Of a stretch of 50,601 bases of DNA, positions 11,398 to 26,895 are shown one piece after another; position 1 is the first letter of the stretch; every line of letters starts with the position of its first letter. A program made the position numbers and the translations under genes. The notes under the pieces are model-generated. The model was not told where the DNA came from. It worked only from the letters and a program-made list of their open reading frames with translations, and did no database searches. This DNA comes from an uncultured Bordetella sp. (GTDB taxonomy: Bacteria > Pseudomonadota > Gammaproteobacteria > Burkholderiales > SG8-39). The DNA lies in the NCBI GenBank assembly GCA_964385505.1, contig CAYLPI010000004.1, positions 1 through 50,601 of the forward strand, written 5' to 3'.

Positions 11398-12171
11398 CTA
11401 GCGCGCGCGGGCTTTGGCGCGGGAGCGGGCCGCCGGCGCGCGATCGCACAGCAGGTAGCGCACCACCATGTCGGCGGCGTGCTCGAGGCGTTGTTTCAGC
11501 CGCTGCGGGGTCATCAGCCGGCGCTGGAAAATCGCCTCGAAGGTGTGCTGGTGGCTGACGTAGTGCGCCGACAGCGAGGTGATGGAAATGTACAGGTCGA
11601 TCGGGTCGATGTCCTTGCGGAACACCCCGGCGGCGGCGCCGCGCCCGAGCAGGTCGCGGATGGCGTCCAGCAGCGGGTTGTACATGCGCGGAATGGTCTT
11701 GGACGCCTTGATGTGGCGGCCCTTGTTGATGTTCTCGCTTTGCAACAGGCGCAGGAACTCCGGATGGCGGCCCCAGTTCTGGCCGGTGAAGAACACCAGT
11801 TTGCGCATCGCCTCGACCGGATCGGCATCGAGGTCGCCGATGCCGGCCGCTTCCTGGTGGGCGCGGATCGACTCGTAAGTGCGCTCAAGCACTGCGGTAA
11901 AAAGGCCTTCCTTGCTGCCGAAGTAGTAGTAGAGGACGTTCTTCTGGATGCCCGAGCGCACGGCGATCTCGTCCATGTGCGCGGCGTAAAAGCCGTTCTC
12001 GGCGAACTGCGTGGTGGCGGCGGCGAGAATCGCCTCGCGCGTGCGCAGCGAACTCTCGCGCATGCGCGGCGTGGCACCACCGGCGGCGGCGAGGCTCGAT
12101 TCACGATGGACAGCCACCGGTGCAGCGGCGGCACCGGGTCGGACTTTGGCGGAAACGGGCTTGCGGCGCAT
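11398..12171 (-). CDS. TetR-family regulator (RutR/NicS-like)
   Basis: ILAAATTQFAENGF...IAVRSGIQKNVLYYYFGSKEGLF HTH; C-domain FLRLLQSEN...GVFRKDIDPIDLYISI. Confidence 0.9.
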   Translation of the reverse strand: MRRKPVSAKVRPGAAAAPVAVHRESSLAAAGGATPRMRESSLRTREAILAAATTQFAENGFYAAHMDEIAVRSGIQKNVLYYYFGSKEGLFTAVLERTYESIRAHQEAAGIGDLDADPVEAMRKLVFFTGQNWGRHPEFLRLLQSENINKGRHIKASKTIPRMYNPLLDAIRDLLGRGAAAGVFRKDIDPIDLYISITSLSAHYVSHQHTFEAIFQRRLMTPQRLKQRLEHAADMVVRYLLCDRAPAARSRAKARAR

Positions 12172-16636: not shown

Positions 16637-18790
16637 TCAGGGCCGGGCGGCGAGCAGGTCTTCGAGCGCAGGCAGCGTGTTCACCGGGGCAAGACACGTC
16701 ATACCGCGGCACAGGTACGCGCTGACACCGCTTGACGGTGCCGGTTTGTCCAGCAGCGGCGGCAGGCGCTGGGACTTTGACGGCACCGCAATCACCAGTG
16801 TCATCGGCTGGAAACCCTTACAGAGCGTGCTTCGGCCGGCAGGCCGAAGCTGCTCGCTAGGCGCCGGGAATTCTCGGCGAAACCCCTGGCTCGCCCCGTC
16901 CAGCGCGGCCCTCCAGCGGGTCATCTCTTCTTCATCACCGCGCAGCACCAGTACCGCGGGTGGTGTCAGGTATTCCTCCAGCGCCATGCACAACGTGGCG
17001 TAGCCGCCCGGGCTTTTGCGCATGGCCGGATAAAACAGCGCGATGCAGCGCTCGGCCGCGGTCAGAAATCGCGTTTCGCCACCGATATGTCCGAGACGTT
17101 GCAGCGCCAGCGCGGCGACGCCGTTGCCCGAGGGCGTGGCGTTGTCGTGGCCGGGCTTGGTGCGCTGGATCAGGCGCTCGTGGTCGTGGCTGGTGAAGCA
17201 AAAGCCGCCGCCCGCGCGGTCTTCGAATTGCTCCAGCAGCACTTCGGCCAGTTCCTCGGCGAAATCGAATTCATCGACGCGAAAGTCCGTCTGCATCAGC
17301 TCGAGCAGCGCCGCCAGCAGGAACGCGTAATCGTCCAGATAGGCATTGAGGTGGGCGCGGCCGTCCTTGTACGTGGCGAGCAGGCGCTCGCCTCCGGCCG
17401 CGTCGCTGCGCGCCTGCCACATGGTGGCACGAATGAAGGCGAGGGCCTTGCGCGCCGAAGCCAGCCAGTCGGGGCGACCGAACACGCGCGCCGCGCGCGC
17501 CATGCCGGCGATCATCAGCGCGTTCCAGGCGACGAGGATCTTTTCGTCGCGGCCCGGCCACACACGCTCGCCGCGCACGGTGAGCAGCTTGTCGCGACCG
17601 CTCGCCAGCAACGCCTCGCATCGCCCGACGCCGCAGCCGAGCTTTGTCGCAATTTCGGTCAACGGCACCGCGACAAGAAAGTGCCAGTGCCTGCCCTCGA
17701 AGTTGGGGCTGCGCTCGAGGCCGTAGTGTGGCGCCAGCACCGCATACTCATCCGCGGTGATCGCGGCGGCAACCTGTTCTTGCGTCCAGACATAAAACCG
17801 GCCTTCCTCGCCCTCGGAGTCGGCGTCGAAAGCCGAGTAATAACCGCCCTCGGCTGATTGCATTTCACGCATCGCCCAGTCGGCGGTTTGCTCAGTGATA
17901 GCGCGGTACAGGACATTGCCGGTCGCGGCAAAGGCATCGGCATAGCGCGAGAGCAGCGGGCCGTTGTCGTAGAGCATTTTTTCGAAATGTGGAATCGCCC
18001 ACTGCGCATCGGTGCTGTAGCGGGCGAAGCCGCCACCGAGCTGGTCAAAAATGCCGCCCAGCGCCATGTTCTCCAGGGTAAACAGCGCGGCGTGCAAGGC
18101 CTGGCTGTCGCCGTTCGAGGCATGACGGCGCAGCAGCAATTCGAGATCGGTCGGATGCGGAAACTTTGGCGCGCCACCAAAGCCGCCGAACTGCGGATCG
18201 AACGCGGCCTTGAGCGAGGCCACCGCCCCGTCCACGGGCTCGGCCGAAAACTCCGAGTGATGCACGGCGCCCGACGGTTGCATGCGCGCAAGGGCTTCGA
18301 GCAGCGAAGCGTTTTGTTCGCGTATTTCGGGCTGGCGCTCGCGATACATCGAAGCCACGCGTTCGCACAAATCGGCAAAGCCCGGCCGGTTGTAGCGCGC
18401 GGTCTTGGGAAAATACGTGCCACCGAAAAACGGCGTGCCCTCGGGCGTCAAAAACATCGTCAACGGCCAGCCGCCGTTTTGCTGCGTCAGCAGGTGGTGT
18501 GCGCTCTGATAAATCTGGTCGAGGTCGGGCCGCTCTTCGCGATCGACCTTGATGTTGACGAACAGGCGGTTCATCACCGCGGCCACTTCTGTGTCCTCAA
18601 AGGACTCGTGCGCCATCACATGGCACCAGTGGCAGGCCGAGTAGCCCACCGACAGCAGGATCGGCTTGCCCTCGTCGCGCGCCCGCGCCAGGGCCTCCTC
18701 TCCCCAGGCAAACCAATCGACCGGATTGCCCGCGTGCTGCTGCAGGTAGGGGCTGGTTTCCTTGGCGAGGCGGTTCATGCGCATGGCCAA
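16637..18790 (-). CDS. yyaL: YyaL/SSP411-family protein (DUF255 thioredoxin domain plus six-hairpin glycosidase-like domain)
   Basis: [62 protein letters not shown]. Confidence 0.93.
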
Positions 18791-19609
18791 TCAGCCGCCC
18801 GCGCGCATCTGAGCGCGGCGCACCCGGGCGCTGATGGCGTCGACGAACACCACCAGCACCAGCATGGCGATGATGACCGTACTCGCCTGCGCTTCATGCA
18901 GCAGCGACAACTCGTAGTAAAGCATCTGCCCCAGCCCGCCGGCGCCGACAAAACCGAGCACCGTGGCCATGCGTATGTTCATTTCCCAGCGGTAGAGGCT
19001 GTAGGCAATGAGTTGCGGCGTGATCAGTGGCAGCGTGCCGTAGATGAAGGTCAGACCGGCCGGCGCGCCGCTTTCGGCCAGCGCGCGCGCCGGTTCGGTC
19101 GGCGCGTTCTCCAGCGATTCGGCGAACAGCCGCCCGAGCACACCGGAGGTGTGCAAGGCCAGCGCCAGCGTGCCGGCGAAGGGCCCGAGGCCGGCGGCGA
19201 GCACCATCAGCGCCGCCCACACCAGCTCGGGCACCGAGCGCAGAAAGTTAAGGAAAAACCGCGTCAACGCCTTGGCCGCACCACCGAAACGCCCCGATGC
19301 CGGCAAGGCCAGCGCGAGGCCTGCCGCTGTGGCAAGCAGGGTGCCAACGGCGGAAATAGCCAGCGTCTCGAGCGCGCCCTTGCCGATTTTTTGCAGAAAA
19401 TCGGCAGACATGTCGGGCGGAAAAAACCGCCTCACAAACTCGGCCATGTAGCCGCGCGATTCGGCGGTAAAGAGGCGCCGCGGTTCGATGGCGAGATAGG
19501 CAAAGCTCGCCCAGATCACGACGGCCAGCGCAGCCAGACCGAGCCAGCAATAAATGCAAAAGCCCAGCGCGCGCCGGCGTTCTTCAAAGGTAACGGTGGC
19601 GTTATTCAT
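18791..19609 (-). CDS. PhnE/PtxC-family ABC permease
   Basis: RSVPELVWA, LGRLFAE, YRWEMNIRMATVLGFVGAGGLG; overlaps the upstream permease stop. Confidence 0.9.
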   Translation of the reverse strand: MNNATVTFEERRRALGFCIYCWLGLAALAVVIWASFAYLAIEPRRLFTAESRGYMAEFVRRFFPPDMSADFLQKIGKGALETLAISAVGTLLATAAGLALALPASGRFGGAAKALTRFFLNFLRSVPELVWAALMVLAAGLGPFAGTLALALHTSGVLGRLFAESLENAPTEPARALAESGAPAGLTFIYGTLPLITPQLIAYSLYRWEMNIRMATVLGFVGAGGLGQMLYYELSLLHEAQASTVIIAMLVLVVFVDAISARVRRAQMRAGG

Positions 19610-20439
19610 GCCAGCAGCTTGCGGATGGACGCGCTGATGGCATCGGCGAGCAGCACCAGCAGCAGGAACATGATGAGAATGGTCGAGACCTCGCCGCCAT
19701 TGAGCATTTTCATCGACTGGTCCATCAACTGGCCGAGACCACCGGCCCCGACAAAGCCCATGATGACCGAGGCGCGCACGGCACATTCCCAGCGATAGAC
19801 GGTGTAGGAGGCGAGCTCTTGTGAGGCGCCGGGCAACAGCCCGTAAAAGAACGCCATCAGGCGGCCGCTGCCCGATTCGAGCAGCGCGCGTGCCGGGCGG
19901 GTGTCTCCGGATTCGAGAATTTCAGAATAGACCTTGCCCAGCATGCCACCGTAAGTGACGGCGATGGCAAGCACGCCTGCGGCCGGCCCGAGGCCGAAGG
20001 CGCGCACCAGCAACAGTGCCCAGACAATCTCCGGTATGCCGCGCAACACCAGCAGCGTGACGCGCGCCAGCGCGCGCAACGCCTCGCCAAAGCCGCGCCC
20101 CGGCCCCGGCCCGATGCGCGATATCGACAGGCTGTGCGAGAGCACGAGCCCCAGCGGCGCGGCCAGCAGCATCGCCAGCGCGGTACCGGCCGTGGCCATG
20201 GCCAGCGTCTCGACGGTGGCCTTCAACACCAGTTGCAGGAACTCGCCCGTCAGATCAGGCGGGAAAAACTGCCCGACGAATCCGCCCATGACCTTGAGGT
20301 TGCGCGCATCGAACAACTCGGCCGGATTGAATTGTGCGATATGCAGCAGCGGCCACAAAACCAACAGCGCGGCCGCCACCCATAGCGCACGCCCTGCCGC
20401 GTCCGGATCGCGCAATGCCATAGTCGCCGGTCCGTTCAT
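19606..20439 (-). CDS. PhnE/PtxC-family ABC permease
   Basis: RGIPEIVWA, LGKVYSEILE, YRWECAVRASVIMGFVGAGGLG. Confidence 0.9.
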   Translation of the reverse strand: MNGPATMALRDPDAAGRALWVAAALLVLWPLLHIAQFNPAELFDARNLKVMGGFVGQFFPPDLTGEFLQLVLKATVETLAMATAGTALAMLLAAPLGLVLSHSLSISRIGPGPGRGFGEALRALARVTLLVLRGIPEIVWALLLVRAFGLGPAAGVLAIAVTYGGMLGKVYSEILESGDTRPARALLESGSGRLMAFFYGLLPGASQELASYTVYRWECAVRASVIMGFVGAGGLGQLMDQSMKMLNGGEVSTILIMFLLLVLLADAISASIRKLLA

Positions 20440-20446
20440 CGCCCCT

Positions 20447-21277
20447 CTAGATGATGCGCGGCGGCGCCACGACTCTGAGTCGGTCGGTCGCCGGTGCCAC
20501 GTCGAACGGCTGATTGTCCTGGGTCGGCAGGGTGCCGGTTTCGGACGCATACAGGTCGCGCAACACGCTATCGCTGACCTTGACCGCCGCCAGGTCGAAG
20601 GCGATCTCGCCGGCACGCAGGCCGATGACGCGCGGAAACCAGCGCAGCGCCACGTCCACCGCGTGCAGGCTCGCCACCAGCGTGACGCCGCGCGTCGACG
20701 CTTCGCTGTGCAACTGGCTGACAGTGAGATCGGCAAGCGCCGGGTCCATCGCCGATACCGGCTCGTCGGCCAGCAACAGGTCCGGTTGCTGGTAGAGCGC
20801 ACGCGCCACGCCGACGCGCTGCAACTGCCCGCCGGAGAGCCGGTCGCAGCGCTCGAACAGGCGGTCGGCGAGATCAAGACGCGCCAGTTGCTCGCGCGCA
20901 CCGGCGATGTCGGCCGGATAGACCAGCGACAGCGCCGATTTCCACCATGGCCACACCCCCAGACGCCCGGCCAGCACCGCGGTAATGGCGCGCTGACGCG
21001 GCGGGATGGGCGGCGACTGGTGCACGACGCCGATGCGCGCGCGCAGCTGCCGCAATTGTGCGCCGGAGAGTTGCCACGGATTGGCCTGCAACACCGACAC
21101 GCGGCCTTCGGTCGGCCGCAGCGATGTCGCAAGAATGCGCAACAGCGAGGTCTTGCCCGCACCCGAGGGGCCGATGATGGCGATGCGCTCGCCGCGCCCG
21201 GCGCTGAGCGTGACCGCGCGCAGCGCGCGCTGGCCGTTGGCGTGAGCGAGGCCCACTTGTGAGAGTTCGAAACTCAA
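20447..21277 (-). CDS. PhnC-like ABC ATP-binding protein
   Basis: [26 protein letters not shown]. Confidence 0.92.
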
Positions 21278-21327
21278 GAAGGGTGTCTTATGACATGGTC
21301 GCGCATAGAGCTTGTATCAAACTATTT

Positions 21328-21432
21328 TGTCATTCCGGGGCCTTTGCGACTGCGCTCAGGGCAGGCTCCAGCCGAGGAATCTGCTTTTTGCCACAATCGA
21401 GAAGCAGATTCCTCTGTGCGCTCGGAACGACA
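21328..21432. repeat. REP-like palindromic element (TGTCATTCCG...GGAATCT / AGATTCC...CGGAAtGACA family) with a nested insertion at 21341-21367
   Basis: Inverted arms shared with copies at 25090 and 38985. Confidence 0.8.
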
Positions 21433-21463
21433 AGTTTTGAGTTTGCCGTTAATCCGTTGTTTG

Positions 21464-22333
21464 TTACTTGATCAGGCCGGCCGACTTGGCGGCGTTCTCG
21501 ATACCGTCATAGTTGGAGGCCTTGGTCGGGATGAACCTGGAGGCACGCTGCAAATCCATGATGGCCTTGTGCGCCGGGTTGCCGGCGTCGAGCTTCAAAA
21601 AGGCGGCCGTGAGTTTTTTAACCACCACCGGGTCGAGGTCGCCACGCACCGTCCAGTTGTAATCATAATAGGGCGGCGTGGTAGCGAGGACCTTCACTTT
21701 CATCGCATTGGGGTTTTTCGTTTCAACCAGCTTGTCCCACACCGACGCATTGAGCACGCCGGCCTCGGCCTTGCCACCGGCGACAAAGGCAACGGTGGCG
21801 TCATGCGCGCCGGAAAAAGCGACGTTCTTCAGATCCTTGTCCGGATTAATGCCCGCCTTCAGCATGAAGTAGCGCGGCATCAGGTGGCCCGAGGTCGATG
21901 AGGGCGACCCGAAGGCGAAGGACTTGCCCTTGATATCGGCGAGCGTCTTGGCGGTGCTGTCGGCGGGCACGATAAAACGGCTGATGAATTTTTCGTCCTC
22001 GGCGCGCTGCACGATGGGTATGGCCGTGCCGTTGGTACGCAGTTTGGTTTGCACGAAGGTAAAGCCGCCAAGCCAGACGAGGTCGAGCTTGCGCGTGGCG
22101 AGCGACTCGACCACGGCGGCGTAGTCGGTTACCGGCGTGAACTCGACCTTCATCCCGGTTTCCTTTTCCAGGTACTCGCCCAGCGGTTTGAACTTGCGCT
22201 GCAACTCGGTCGGCGCTTCATCGGGAATGGCAGAAACCCTGAGTACGGCCTGCGCCAGAGCCGTATCAAAGAAGGCCAGCGAAAGCATGACGGCGGCGAG
22301 AATGGATGAGAACTTGCGTGGCAAAACACTCAT
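21464..22333 (-). CDS. PhnD-like periplasmic binding protein, putative selenate ABC transporter type
   Basis: Signal peptide; VSAIPDE, TDYAAVV, WLGGFT, STSGHLMPR, SGAHDAT, YYDYNW; lies next to sen genes. Confidence 0.85.
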   Translation of the reverse strand: MSVLPRKFSSILAAVMLSLAFFDTALAQAVLRVSAIPDEAPTELQRKFKPLGEYLEKETGMKVEFTPVTDYAAVVESLATRKLDLVWLGGFTFVQTKLRTNGTAIPIVQRAEDEKFISRFIVPADSTAKTLADIKGKSFAFGSPSSTSGHLMPRYFMLKAGINPDKDLKNVAFSGAHDATVAFVAGGKAEAGVLNASVWDKLVETKNPNAMKVKVLATTPPYYDYNWTVRGDLDPVVVKKLTAAFLKLDAGNPAHKAIMDLQRASRFIPTKASNYDGIENAAKSAGLIK

Positions 22334-22371
22334 GACGACTCCTGGACGAATTAAAAAGGTAATGGAAAACT

Positions 22372-22530
22372 TCAGGTCACCGGCACACCCGACCCGGGGT
22401 TAAAAGCCCTGATCTTGCGCGCACCGGCAAACCCGCCCGCGTTAAACAGCGTGAGTGCGCCGGGTGCGACACTGCAGCCACCGCCGTGGGCGGGCGGGGC
22501 AAGGCGGAACGCGGTACTCATCTGGTTCAT
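22372..22530 (-). pseudogene. selD: 52-aa ORF: internally deleted selenophosphate synthetase (selD/senC) remnant, N-terminus fused to C-terminus
   Basis: Manual translation MNQMSTAFRLAPPAHGGGCSVAPGALTLFNAGGFAGARKIRAFNPGSGVPVT*; RBS GGAG 8 nt upstream; resembles SelD N-terminal RLxxxxHGGGCGCKIAPG and a SelD-like C-terminal tail; located between senA and the ABC transporter. Confidence 0.7.
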
Positions 22531-22595
22531 GGCGATGACTCCGGAATTTGAGCGCGCAGTTTAACAGGCCGCTGCAGTCCTTCTTCAGGCCCGGC

Positions 22596-23843
22596 TCAAC
22601 ACGCCTGCTGCTGTACGCGTTGCAATTGCGCATCGATGGCCTTGAGTTGCGCCCCGCCACCGGCGTTTTTTACCGCCATGGCCTGCGCTTTTGCCAGCGA
22701 GGTTTTCGCAGGGCCCCACTGCAGCAGCGTGCATTGCGCGCTACCCAGATCGAGGTAGCCGCCCGCCAGCGTGAAGGCGCGAAATTCCGGCTGGCCCGTC
22801 GCGGTTGAGGCCTCCAGCGCCGCCGTGGATTTGCCGAATGCCCGTAGCGCTTCGTCGCTGCGGCCCTGCTGCCGGTAAATCAGTACCAGCCCGCGATAAA
22901 TTTCCGCAACGAGATAGACACGGTCCGCACCGAATTTCGACTGGATATCGGCCTCGCGCAGTTTCAGCACCACGCGCAGCGCTTCTACCCCGGTGCGCTC
23001 GGCCTCGTTCAGGCGCTGCATGGACCAGTACAGTGTGCCGGTGCGGTAAACAACAAAGGCCACCTGCGGACTGTCGGCGCCAAAGGTCTTGGCCGCGACA
23101 AGCGCCCCGGCATACAACGCCATTGCATCGTCCGGACGTTTGTTGCGGTAGGCTTCAAGACCCTGTTGCAGCTTTGCCGGCCATTGATTCTGGTCTGCCG
23201 GCGCCTTGGGGACCGGGCCGGCTTCCGGAGCCGGTGTTGCGACCGCTGCCGCCGCTGCGACTGGCGGCGCCGGATACAGTATCCATTCGACACTCAGCGC
23301 TACCAGTCCCGGTTTGGCGCTGCGTATCCTCAGCTTTGCCAGATTGCCTTCGGTGGTACGAACGGCGATGACCGTGCCGTCCTTGATTTCGGCACCGGCG
23401 CCCGATGCCGGCAGCCGCACCAGATCGTATCGGAGTGTGGCAAGAAAGGCCGCGTCCATCGCCGGGAAATCGCGGCCCCCTGCGTCTGGGATGCGCGCCA
23501 TCAAAGCGCTGTTCCTCAAATCCAGCGAGCGGTCGGTCTTGGTGGCGAAATGCCACCACAGGTCGGCAGCCTTGAGGGCGGCGGTATCGCCGGTCTCCAG
23601 ATCCAGCGTGAAACTGGGCTTCACCGTCGCCGACATGACCGACTCGGCGACGACCCTGGGCTTCACCGCAGGCAGCGTCGTCGGCACGGGAATGCGCTGC
23701 AACAGCGCCTTGAGCTCCGGGGCATAGCGCACCGCCGCGACCACTGCGGCGGCGACCAGGGCGACCAGCACCCACATCCAGTCGGATCGACTGCTGCGAT
23801 TAACTTCGCCAGGGGACCCGCCCCGATCAAAATTGCCATTCAT
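22596..23843 (-). CDS. Membrane-anchored protein with beta-rich domain and C-terminal TPR repeats
   Basis: TM segment WMWVLVALVAAAVVAAV; GTVIAVRTTEGNLAKLRI domain; Pro/Ala linker; TPR-like helices; ATGA overlap with the senA stop. Confidence 0.7.
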   Translation of the reverse strand: MNGNFDRGGSPGEVNRSSRSDWMWVLVALVAAAVVAAVRYAPELKALLQRIPVPTTLPAVKPRVVAESVMSATVKPSFTLDLETGDTAALKAADLWWHFATKTDRSLDLRNSALMARIPDAGGRDFPAMDAAFLATLRYDLVRLPASGAGAEIKDGTVIAVRTTEGNLAKLRIRSAKPGLVALSVEWILYPAPPVAAAAAVATPAPEAGPVPKAPADQNQWPAKLQQGLEAYRNKRPDDAMALYAGALVAAKTFGADSPQVAFVVYRTGTLYWSMQRLNEAERTGVEALRVVLKLREADIQSKFGADRVYLVAEIYRGLVLIYRQQGRSDEALRAFGKSTAALEASTATGQPEFRAFTLAGGYLDLGSAQCTLLQWGPAKTSLAKAQAMAVKNAGGGAQLKAIDAQLQRVQQQAC

Positions 23844-25036
23844 GACACGGCGCAGGTGCGAAAGCCGCAAAACATGTCGGCGCGATCGGGTTTGTAAAAA
23901 TTGCGCAAGGCCGGGCGCTGCAGTCGCGCCGGCGTGACGAAACTGCCGCCGCGCAGCACGCGATGATGCTCGGCAAACCACGGCGCCGAGTAGTCCTTGT
24001 AAGGGTCAGCGGCAAAGCCGGCAAAGGGTGAGAAGCGGCTGGCGGTCCATTCCCAAGCGCAGCCTGTGTCGAACTGTTCTGGCGCGCTGCGCGCTGCATG
24101 TTCGAATTCGGCCTCGGTCGGCAGGCGCCGGCCGGCCCAGCGGCAATACGCCTCGGCCTCGTGGGCGCTGACGTGCATGACAGGCTCATCGTTGGCAAGA
24201 GGCAACCAGGCGTCGAAGCGACGAACCAGCCAGGCGCCTTTCTCGCGGCGCCAGTAGCGCGGATGGTCGAGCGCGAGCGACTCGCGCATCGCCCAGCCCT
24301 CGTCGCTCCACAAGGCGCGCCGCGCATAACCGCCGGTGTCGACGAACTCGCGGTACTGGCCGTTGCTGAGCACGCCGCGGGCGATGGCGAAAGGCTCGAG
24401 CGTCACTTCGTGCCGCCATTTCTCGTTGTCGAACACGAAGCCCGTTCCGGGGGCTGATCCGAGCATGACCGCGCCCCCTGACAGGGCGATGTCGCCTTCG
24501 GGCAGCGCCGACAAAGCCGGCGTATCGGGCAGCGCAAAACCCAGCGTCTGCCAGCTGTAAGTGAAGGCCTCGTTGTGCATGTCGTGGTGAAAGCCGACCA
24601 GTTGGGCGAAATAGGCGCGCTCATCGTCCGCCTCGTCCTGCAACAGCGCGAGGCTTTTCGCCAGCACGGCGGCGGCATAGGCGCGCATCGCGGCGAAATC
24701 GGGCAGGTCCAGCGTCCAGCGCGTGTCATGCGCGACGTTCGAAGAGTCGTACCAGCGGTCGGCATCAGCTAGCAGGGAGGGCGTGTTGAAATCGCCGCCG
24801 CGATGCAGCCAGAATTCCTCGAACCATGCGACGTGACCGATTTCCCAAAGCGGCGGGTTGACGATCGCGAGCAGTGGCACCTCCATGCTGCGCGTGGCGA
24901 ACCGCGCGAACAACTGTCGTGTGCGCGCGTGCGCTTCGGTCAGCCGCCCGCGCAGTACGGTCGCCGCCGGATGCGGGCGAAACTGCGCGAAATCGGGCCA
25001 GCCGGCGCGATGCGCTCGCTCTGCTATATTGCTCAT
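23840..25036 (-). CDS. senA: Selenoneine synthase SenA (EgtB-like DinB + FGE-sulfatase domains)
   Basis: NPPLWEIGHVAWFEE, YDSSNVAHDTRW, HHDMHNEAF metal triad, FVFDNEKWRH, RRLPTEAEFE, WEWT, DPYKDYSAPWF, RGGS, GFRTC; divergent from senB. Confidence 0.9.
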   Translation of the reverse strand: MSNIAERAHRAGWPDFAQFRPHPAATVLRGRLTEAHARTRQLFARFATRSMEVPLLAIVNPPLWEIGHVAWFEEFWLHRGGDFNTPSLLADADRWYDSSNVAHDTRWTLDLPDFAAMRAYAAAVLAKSLALLQDEADDERAYFAQLVGFHHDMHNEAFTYSWQTLGFALPDTPALSALPEGDIALSGGAVMLGSAPGTGFVFDNEKWRHEVTLEPFAIARGVLSNGQYREFVDTGGYARRALWSDEGWAMRESLALDHPRYWRREKGAWLVRRFDAWLPLANDEPVMHVSAHEAEAYCRWAGRRLPTEAEFEHAARSAPEQFDTGCAWEWTASRFSPFAGFAADPYKDYSAPWFAEHHRVLRGGSFVTPARLQRPALRNFYKPDRADMFCGFRTCAVS

Positions 25037-25089
25037 CGGACACGACTACCAAGATTAATGCTGCGTTTTAACATGACCATCCCGAACCT

Positions 25090-25169
25090 TGTCATTCCGG
25101 GCGCAAAGACCGAGGAATCTGCTTTTGCGTCAAACAAAAAGCAGATTCCTCACTGCGTTCGGAATGACA
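25090..25169. repeat. REP-like palindromic element in the senA/senB divergent intergenic region
   Basis: tgtcattccg...gaggaatctgctttt / aaaagcagattcctc...cggaatgaca. Confidence 0.82.
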
Positions 25170-25199
25170 CGTTGTTTTGAATCAAGTACCACTCCGACC

Positions 25200-26147
25200 A
25201 TGCGCATCGTCATTGTAACGCCGGCACGACCGGGCTCGCGCCACGGCAACCGCAATACCGCGCTGCGCTGGGCGGCGCACTTGCGCGCGCTGGGTCATCG
25301 AGTACTCGTCACGCTCGAATGGAAAGACCAGGCGTGCGACCTGCTGATCGCACTGCACGCGCGGCGCAGCCACGCCTCGATCAAGGCCTTCAAGGCTGCA
25401 CACCCGAACAAACCGCTGGTACTGGTACTGACCGGGACCGACCTTTACCGCGACATTCGCAGCGACAAGGATGCGAAGCAGTCTCTCAAACTCGCCGACC
25501 GCATGGTGGTGTTGCAGCCCGGTGGGCTGGATGAGCTCAAGGCCGGCGCACGCGCAAAGACCCGTGTGATTTTCCAGTCAGTGCGCGCGATGAGGCGACA
25601 GGCACCGCCCGCCAGCTATACCCTGGTCACGGTGATCGGCCATTTGCGCGAGGAAAAAGACCCGTTTCGCGCCGCGCTGGCACTGGCGCGCCTGCCGGCC
25701 GATGACAATGTCCGCGTTGTCCACCTGGGCCAGGCCATGTCAGCCGAATACGCGCGCGAAGCGCGGGCGCTGATGAAATACGAACCGCGCTACCGCTGGC
25801 TGGGCGAGCTTGACCACGCCGGTGCGATGCGCTGGCTCGCGCGCAGCCACGCCATGGTGATTTCCAGCCTGATGGAGGGCGGCGCCCACGTCGTGTCCGA
25901 GGCCATCGCCATCGGCGTGCCGGTCATTGCATCGGATGTGCCGGGCAATATCGGCCTGCTGGGCCAGGGCTATCCGGGCTGTTACCCGGTCGGCGATGAC
26001 AAGGCGCTTGCCGCGCTGCTCGCGCGCGCCGCGGCCGATCCGGCATGGCTGGCGCGGCTTGCCGCCAAAACCACCGCACGCCAGGGCATTGTCGATCCGG
26101 CGCGCGAGCGCGCCGGGCTGGCGCGGCTGGTGGCTGATTTGCATTGA
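25200..26147 (+). CDS. senB: Selenosugar synthase SenB (GT-B glycosyltransferase)
   Basis: IVTPA...GNRNTALRW, IALHARRS, LTGTDLYRD, GHLREEKDP, SSLMEGGAHVVSEA. Confidence 0.92.
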   Translation: MRIVIVTPARPGSRHGNRNTALRWAAHLRALGHRVLVTLEWKDQACDLLIALHARRSHASIKAFKAAHPNKPLVLVLTGTDLYRDIRSDKDAKQSLKLADRMVVLQPGGLDELKAGARAKTRVIFQSVRAMRRQAPPASYTLVTVIGHLREEKDPFRAALALARLPADDNVRVVHLGQAMSAEYAREARALMKYEPRYRWLGELDHAGAMRWLARSHAMVISSLMEGGAHVVSEAIAIGVPVIASDVPGNIGLLGQGYPGCYPVGDDKALAALLARAAADPAWLARLAAKTTARQGIVDPARERAGLARLVADLH

Positions 26148-26196
26148 AGTTTGCAGCGCGCGTCTACCATCTTGCACCGTTACGGAGCCTGAGCCG

Positions 26197-26895
26197 ATGA
26201 AACCACTGCCAGAGCACGAAGACCAGACCCGCATGCGCCGCCGCGTCATTGCCGGCCTGCTCGCCGGCGGACTATCCGCAAACCCGCTGATACGTCAGGC
26301 ACTGGCGCAGCAAACCATCACCCAGGGCATGCAACGGGTGCAGGGCGAGGTACGCGTCAATGGCGTGCTGGCCGAGGCCGGCACCGCAGTACGCCCCGGC
26401 GATAGCGTCACCACCGGGCGCCGCGCCCTCGCCATGTTCGTCGTCGGCCAGGACGCGTTTTTGCTGCGCAATAACAGCCGCGCCGATCTGGCCGGCGCCG
26501 ATTTGTTCATCGACGTGCTGCGCCTGGTCAGCGGCCGCTTGCTCAGTGTGTTCGGCAAGGGCGGCGATCGACGCATCGTCACGCCGGCGGCGACCATAGG
26601 CATACGCGGCACCGGCGGCTACGCCGAGGCCGAGAACACACGCACCTATTTTTGCCTGTGCTACGGCACGGCCGACATCGCCACCACCGACGGCGCCGCA
26701 CGCGACAGCTATACCACCGCGCACCACGAGTCGCCGCGCTACATTTACGGCGACGGGCGCGGCAACGCCATCGTTCCGGCGAGCGTGTCCAATCACACCG
26801 ACTACGAGCTGATCATGCTCGAAGCACTGGTCGGGCGGCGTCCGCCCGACTCGGTGATGAACGCGCCGATGATGAGCAATCCCTACGCCTATTAA
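26197..26895 (+). CDS. FecR-domain protein with Tat-like signal peptide
   Basis: RRRVIAGLLAGG...ALA; GEVRVNG, PGDSVTTG, TPAATIGIRGT. Confidence 0.78.
   Translation: MKPLPEHEDQTRMRRRVIAGLLAGGLSANPLIRQALAQQTITQGMQRVQGEVRVNGVLAEAGTAVRPGDSVTTGRRALAMFVVGQDAFLLRNNSRADLAGADLFIDVLRLVSGRLLSVFGKGGDRRIVTPAATIGIRGTGGYAEAENTRTYFCLCYGTADIATTDGAARDSYTTAHHESPRYIYGDGRGNAIVPASVSNHTDYELIMLEALVGRRPPDSVMNAPMMSNPYAY

Follow-up and report, generated by a model that had tools for sequence, protein, structure and literature searches.

The 52-codon ORF at 22372..22530 on the minus strand of the window (the whole stretch of DNA that was analysed, 50,601 nucleotides) is very probably a decaying pseudogene remnant of senC, the selD homologue of a selenoneine cluster, left behind by an in-frame internal deletion. 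By descent the ORF is senC, judging from its likeness to SelD at both ends and from its senC position in the gene order. It starts with an ATG at 22530, stops with a TGA at 22374-22372 and encodes 52 amino acids. A GGAG ribosome-binding site (RBS) inherited from senC (22539..22542, minus strand) lies 8 nt before the ATG, and a comparable GGAG-to-ATG distance is found before selD in three relatives (G001, G002, and G008); upstream of the GGAG, the remnant and its relatives show no further alignment. Between the stop and the ATG of the next gene (22333), which encodes the binding protein of a putative selenate transporter, lie 38 nt (22371-22334). The ORF, its peptide, the GGAG and the 38-nt gap had all been reported in the original prediction, and we re-read them identically from the sequence.

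We searched the source genome and 60 relatives in six frames with the 52-aa peptide. Residues 1-28 match the very start of a frame of about 350 aa in G001 and G002 (both of the same genus), G020, G008, and G011, with 61-64% identity and E-values from 4e-5 to 6e-4, and residues 24-51 (21-51 in G011) match the very end of that frame in G001 (E=0.003), G011, G002, and G020. In G001, G002, G011, and G020 the N-terminal and C-terminal pieces both match, at opposite ends of one frame, and a match over the full span (residues 1-52) was found in the source genome only. The G001 frame (P0005) is a 349-aa SelD, with scores of 527 bits for NF002098 and 429 bits for TIGR00476. In pairwise BLASTP against the same-genus 349-aa SelD, remnant residues 1-27 pair with residues 1-29 (18/29 identical, E=8e-10) and the remnant tail with residues 301-349 (E=3e-07). 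SelD/SenC is 349-351 aa long in the related genomes; the remnant pairs with its first 29 and last 25 residues, and in an alignment with five orthologues nothing in the remnant matches their residues 30-324. The origin put forward in the original prediction, a fusion of the SelD N- and C-termini to be checked by aligning the halves with SelD/SenC, is borne out: both halves do align to the SelD termini, and the ORF sits in the same gene-order slot. Its figure of roughly 300 lost codons holds as to an in-frame internal loss, which we measured at 295 + 2 codons against the orthologues.

The peptide matched no Pfam or NCBIfam family at E<=10, as expected for two short end pieces, and a genome search with TIGR00476 (cut-off 125 bits) gave no match on the remnant's contig at E<=10. 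The remnant lacks both the SelD family-profile match and the AIR-synthase-like N- and C-domains by which SelD is recognised. Judged from its sequence, its product cannot make selenophosphate, both SelD domains being gone. A weak match to the SelD N-terminus on contig C144 of the source genome (E=0.6) was treated as chance, and small frames matched in G050 (57 aa) and G058 (52 aa) were set aside as composition-like; their fetched loci contained no sen gene.

At the codon level, remnant codons 1-27 (22450..22530, minus strand) correspond to orthologue codons 1-29 minus two and cover the N-terminal glycine-rich loop region, and codons 28-52 (22375..22449, minus strand) correspond to the orthologues' last 25 codons, with an identical stop position. 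The loop contains a lysine (Lys20), neighbouring the selenide-binding cysteine, that is essential in SelD. The catalytic loop reads H-G-G-G-C-G-C-K-I-A-P-G in the orthologues and H-G-G-G-C-S-V-A-P-G in the remnant; the Lys-Ile that follows the Gly-Cys units in the orthologues reads Ser-Val, and the codon after the GGC-TGC of the remnant, where the orthologues have the loop Lys, is AGT (Ser). In E. coli SelD, the selenide-binding Cys17 lies within the N-terminal glycine-rich region (PMC3956282). The remnant has a lone GGC-TGC unit (22474..22479, minus strand) where all five orthologues in the codon alignment have a tandem GGCTGC-GGCTGC, marking the site of a 6-bp in-frame slip. The first Cys had been described as kept and the Gly-Cys-Lys as lost; one Cys is indeed kept and the Gly-Cys-Lys spoiled, but the surviving Cys is not assignable to either unit, the 6-bp loss lying within the tandem. 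More broadly, the stretch R-L-T-S-L-A-H-G-G-G-C-G-C-K-I-A-P-G-V-L-T is invariant in the five orthologues, which represent four genera, and the remnant departs from it by six substitutions and the two-codon loss.

The surroundings of the remnant are those of a selenoneine cluster, as had been proposed: senA and senB adjoin it. The selenoneine synthase gene senA (23840..25036, minus strand) is intact (NF041186, 493 bits against a cut-off of 420), and senB, encoding selenosugar synthase (25089..26147, plus strand; TIGR04348, 403 bits against a cut-off of 300), is divergent from it. The true start of senB is probably near 25200, as the profile match opens at residue 40. The first gene past the remnant encodes the putative selenate ABC transporter substrate-binding protein (21464..22333, minus strand; TIGR04553, 367 bits against a cut-off of 250), which is 93% identical to the product of the G002 gene that follows intact senC. 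By family matches and gene order, the same transporter also comprises an ATPase of the PhnC type (20447-21277) and two permeases of the PhnE type (about 19606-20460 and 18791-19786), likewise encoded on the minus strand. Conservation of the block ends with a further minus-strand gene, for a DUF255 thioredoxin-domain protein (16637..18790; PF03190), which closes the block in G001 and G002 too. The bioRxiv preprint in which Kayrouz and colleagues defined the sen cluster (10.1101/2022.04.13.486033) describes it as senA (an egtB homologue), senB (TIGR04348), and senC (a selD homologue), reports a putative selenate transporter next to some of the clusters, and gives 827 three-gene clusters among 2,353 TIGR04348 genes; in its assay, SenC supports the SenB-dependent formation of the selenosugar.

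We compared gene order by searching 16 loci, fetched from 15 relatives, with the proteins of the stretch (tblastn). In G002, G008, and G011, senB is divergent from senA-selD-binding protein-PhnC-PhnE-PhnE(-DUF255); G001 has the order senA-selD-DUF255, and in G049 senA-selD lies at a contig end. The studied stretch matches this order, its selD slot being taken exactly by the 52-codon ORF, and has one extra gene. This gene (P0002; 22596..23843, minus strand) lies between senA and the remnant, and the gap from senA to selD, about 0.1-0.2 kb in G001 and G002, measures 1.3 kb here. It encodes a 415-aa membrane-anchored TPR protein (TPR_12) with an N-terminal membrane helix, a family-less middle domain, an Ala/Pro linker, and C-terminal TPR repeats, and its ATG overlaps the senA stop (ATGA). 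We read the TPR gene as an insertion between senA and the remnant, since the three same-genus genomes gave no match to the protein and G011 gave only one of 34%, on another, unrelated contig; there is no composition break at the insertion.

Some further features of this region were recorded. The four transporter genes (18791-22333) share 87-93% protein identity with G002, and senA and senB (23840-26147) and the DUF255 gene (16637-18790) only 72-76%, a contrast that may reflect uneven constraint or a recombined or transferred block. The ORF after senB (25927-26895, plus strand) carries a twin-arginine-like signal, matches no family, is 67-68% conserved at the same place beside senB in G001 and G002, and is possibly an as yet uncharacterised partner of the sen genes. 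G001 lacks the whole transporter block between senC and DUF255, and the gap (L025, about 11530-11730) holds repeated, inverted-repeat-like sequence, which suggests a separate deletion there. The source genome also carries a second SenA/EgtB-like gene (contig C119:1784-3058) that, at 379 bits, falls short of the SenA cut-off (420) and is probably an EgtB-type paralogue.

Short direct repeats can lead to deletions by replication slippage or illegitimate recombination, and to pseudogene remnants in bacteria. Both ends of the large deletion carry such a repeat in the orthologues. The N-site reads GGC GT(G/A) CTG ACC in five of five orthologues, in which codons 27-28 are GTG-CTG, and the C-site reads GA(A/G) GTG CTG GC(C/G) in three of five (G002, G011, and G020). 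The ancestral order would have been senB divergent from senA-senC-selenate ABC transporter-DUF255, which is still present in a same-genus relative. From it, 885 bp (295 codons) of senC would have been lost between the short in-frame direct repeats GTG-CTG, joining codon about 27 to codon about 323. The alignment with the orthologues places the junction zone in remnant codons 25-27 (22450..22458, minus strand), which read GCA CTC ACG; finer placement is impossible because these codons have since changed. A second event, a 6-bp slip in the tandem GGCTGC-GGCTGC, would have taken one Gly-Cys unit out of the catalytic loop, and later substitutions would have altered the loop lysine and other invariant residues. 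Because both deletions are in-frame by nature, the RBS, start, frame, and stop could have been retained without selection.

Constraint on the retained codons looks relaxed from the codon comparison. Across the 52 codons in common, the remnant differs from the orthologues by a dN of 0.29-0.34, compared with 0.08-0.19 among the orthologues, so that nonsynonymous divergence is about 2-3 times that among the orthologues; the corresponding dS values are 0.68-1.18 and 0.75-1.35, with the exception of G001 vs G002 (0.23). Three-point estimates with G020, G011, or G008 as the outside sequence give a branch dN/dS of about 0.4-1.2 for the remnant and about 0.1-0.5 for G001, values that are indicative only, with 52 codons and near-saturated dS. 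The dN/dS test proposed in the original prediction therefore gives a partial answer: dN is raised in the remnant, and a branch value of about 0.4-1.2, from 52 codons with dS near saturation, would also be compatible with some constraint. The open frame itself is easily kept. Among 477 possible single substitutions, 11 give a premature stop or a lost start (four stops and seven start losses), and the frame survives 20 random substitutions with a probability of about 0.63. The intact frame is accordingly no argument for function, because the deletions keep the frame mechanically and the chance of a stop is low.

The short form is real and varies between strains. In a public protein collection we found one cluster of three 52-aa variants, each on one to six contigs of up to 33 kb: the studied sequence, A37T, and L26H + N30T + A37T (P0004, on six contigs). 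Twenty runs from 18 studies contain part of the stretch; among 22 runs none is on record as RNA, which says nothing on expression. The contigs of four runs (X11, X12, X13, and X16) were compared with the stretch. X16 does not cover the remnant; the other three share 22422 C>T, 22442 T>G, and 22454 A>T, which together make up the triple variant. An independent X13 contig (record 21) spans 22370-22931 gap-free, with no joint or loose end there. The three strain differences in the 159-nt remnant compare with about six in a partly covered flank of about 4.5 kb, a density about 10-fold higher, with a Poisson P of about 0.001-0.004 in a post hoc comparison of small numbers. This excess is more than plain neutrality would give, and a recombination patch, a mutational hot spot, selection, and small numbers are possible causes. 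A search for metagenome contigs carrying P0004 matched 594 pattern stretches and confirmed none; records near the source genome may be left out of it.

Beyond this species the short form was not seen: in the six-frame search of the 60 related genomes every good match fell on an end of a full-length SelD, and a low-stringency SelD tblastn of the 16 fetched loci and the stretch gave no remnant-like match outside the studied stretch. The original prediction had taken presence in only one genome as evidence against a repurposing of the ORF, and this is nearly what we find, with one species and yet three variants.

These observations bear on the alternative that the ORF is a co-opted micro-protein, a peptide consisting of the Cys-loop and the SelD C-terminal strand that binds selenide or selenite, or partners the transporter, SenB, or the fused SelD described below. 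We consider this very unlikely. Its RBS, start, frame, and stop are present, three variants drawn from several metagenome studies all keep the ORF intact, as a functional small gene would, and it lies inside an intact selenium operon; the excess of nonsynonymous changes between strains can moreover be read as diversifying selection. However, no short form was found among the 60 related genomes, residues invariant in SelD are altered, the loop lysine included, and all three strain differences in the remnant are nonsynonymous, an outcome with a neutral probability of 0.39. The mechanism of deletion, together with the 11 disruptive substitutions in 477, is enough to explain the open frame. It is likewise very unlikely that the collapsed senC lives on as a translated selenium-handling or regulatory factor of the operon of senA and the selenate transporter, with the strain differences reflecting selection.

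A second alternative places the function in the act of translation, with the remnant serving as a leader or spacer ORF that tunes the transporter genes by ribosome retention or by Cys- or Se-dependent stalling. The remnant does end 38 nt before the binding-protein start, and no promoter-like or terminator-like site was found on the minus strand in 22200-22800; the stretch from the TPR gene to the binding-protein gene holds none, suggesting one transcript. The mark of a leader peptide, however, is a conserved short ORF with an attenuator or stalling signal, and in its place the relatives have full-length senC or nothing. We found no attenuator-like structure near the remnant, and Rfam gave one chance-level match only on 22100-22800 (E=0.5). 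In addition, the stop and the next start are neither overlapping nor close, and the peptide has no run of regulatory codons. Relatives either have the transporter 60-280 nt after a full-length senC or lack it, so that the arrangement of remnant and transporter appears inherited and not that of a dedicated leader. We regard this role as highly improbable.

Finally, although the genome is fragmented (308 contigs) and short open frames are common in GC-rich DNA, it is barely credible that the ORF is a random SelD-like frame or an assembly collapse of full-length senC: the former is ruled out by both halves matching the ends of one gene in the matching gene-order slot, and the latter by the gap-free junction in contigs of other runs and by the variants among public proteins.

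A decaying senC thus remains the preferred reading. Since the genes are co-directional with no terminator-like site between them, the remnant is probably co-transcribed with the operon and carried on its transcript, and a functionless 52-aa peptide may be translated from it via the inherited RBS. Of the two possibilities first offered, a decaying pseudogene fits the changes at invariant residues, the raised dN, and the nonsynonymous variants; a repurposed peptide or leader ORF is disfavoured by the lack of a short form in 60 relatives, by the faster evolution of the codons, by three of three strain differences being nonsynonymous, and by a frame that is explained mechanically.

The loss of senC raises the question of the selenophosphate supply. 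A search of the source genome for an intact selD, suggested in the original prediction, returned one: the only intact SelD domain found is part of a fusion on contig C3 (L001 1381-3660, minus strand), with an N-terminal pyridine nucleotide-disulfide oxidoreductase (TIGR03169, 519 bits) and a SelD part that scores 295 bits for TIGR00476. Within the same genus, G001 has senC only, G002 has both types, and G003 has the fusion only and no senA. Across the 61 genomes searched, SenA was over its cut-off in 29, and 50 have a SelD. Six of the 29 SenA genomes apparently have the fused type only (G000, G013, G028, G029, G040, and G055); the fusion was confirmed by tblastn in G000, G013, and G040, and judged by score and open-frame length in G028, G029, and G055. 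No SelD was detected in two of the 29, G015 (74% complete) and G052 (85% complete).

In G040, a fusion 68% identical to that of the source genome (L044 5665-7932) immediately follows senB, and senA and the selenate transporter are its neighbours. In G013, senA-senB has no nearby SelD match and the fusion is on another contig. Nine of the 15 relatives with fetched sen loci show no SelD match near senA-senB, and none of the nine shows a remnant. Because the G040 fusion directly follows senB, such a fusion appears able to occupy the senC role in a sen cluster, and by analogy with this neighbourhood in another genome the C3 fusion most likely supplies selenophosphate to SenB in the source genome. 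Redundancy with the fusion is likely the reason why senC could decay.

For annotation, this means that a 'hypothetical protein' is a senC remnant, and that the sen cluster here is a senA-senB cluster without its own selenophosphate synthetase. The locus also amounts to a natural experiment, in which senC is lost, senA, senB, and the selenate transporter are intact, and the sole SelD of the genome is an oxidoreductase-SelD fusion. It predicts that this fusion is able to feed selenoneine synthesis, for which the G040 neighbourhood is supportive. The remnant is in addition a clean case of a deletion between in-frame repeats that leaves a gene-like ORF, and as such a trap for small-protein discovery. 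In the literature we found no paper combining selenoneine, selD, and pseudogene; Supplementary Fig. 1 of the preprint may show senC-less clusters. The ORF is most likely a tidy but ordinary pseudogene remnant, with its main value lying in annotation and as a pointer to a possible role of the fusion in selenoneine synthesis.

Compared with known systems, the remnant shares with SenC/SelD (TIGR00476, NF002098) its gene ancestry, RBS, start, and stop, its first approximately 27 and last 25 codons, and the slot after senA and before a putative selenate transporter. Unlike them, it is missing both AIR-synthase-like domains and in all about 85% of the protein, has one Gly-Cys unit deleted and the loop Lys replaced by Ser, gives no profile match, and is not a functional member of the family. 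The fusion, a separate gene from a different contig, is no kin of the remnant locus; its identity to the senC-type SelD is only about 34%, yet it resembles senC in its G040 position after senB. The remnant also resembles the bacterial pseudogenes that arise by deletion between direct repeats, with which it has in common the in-frame repeats at both orthologue sites, the raised nonsynonymous change, and a second gene of the same function in the genome. It differs from the usual remnants of this kind in being unusually tidy, a complete ORF with translation signals in an otherwise intact and probably active operon.
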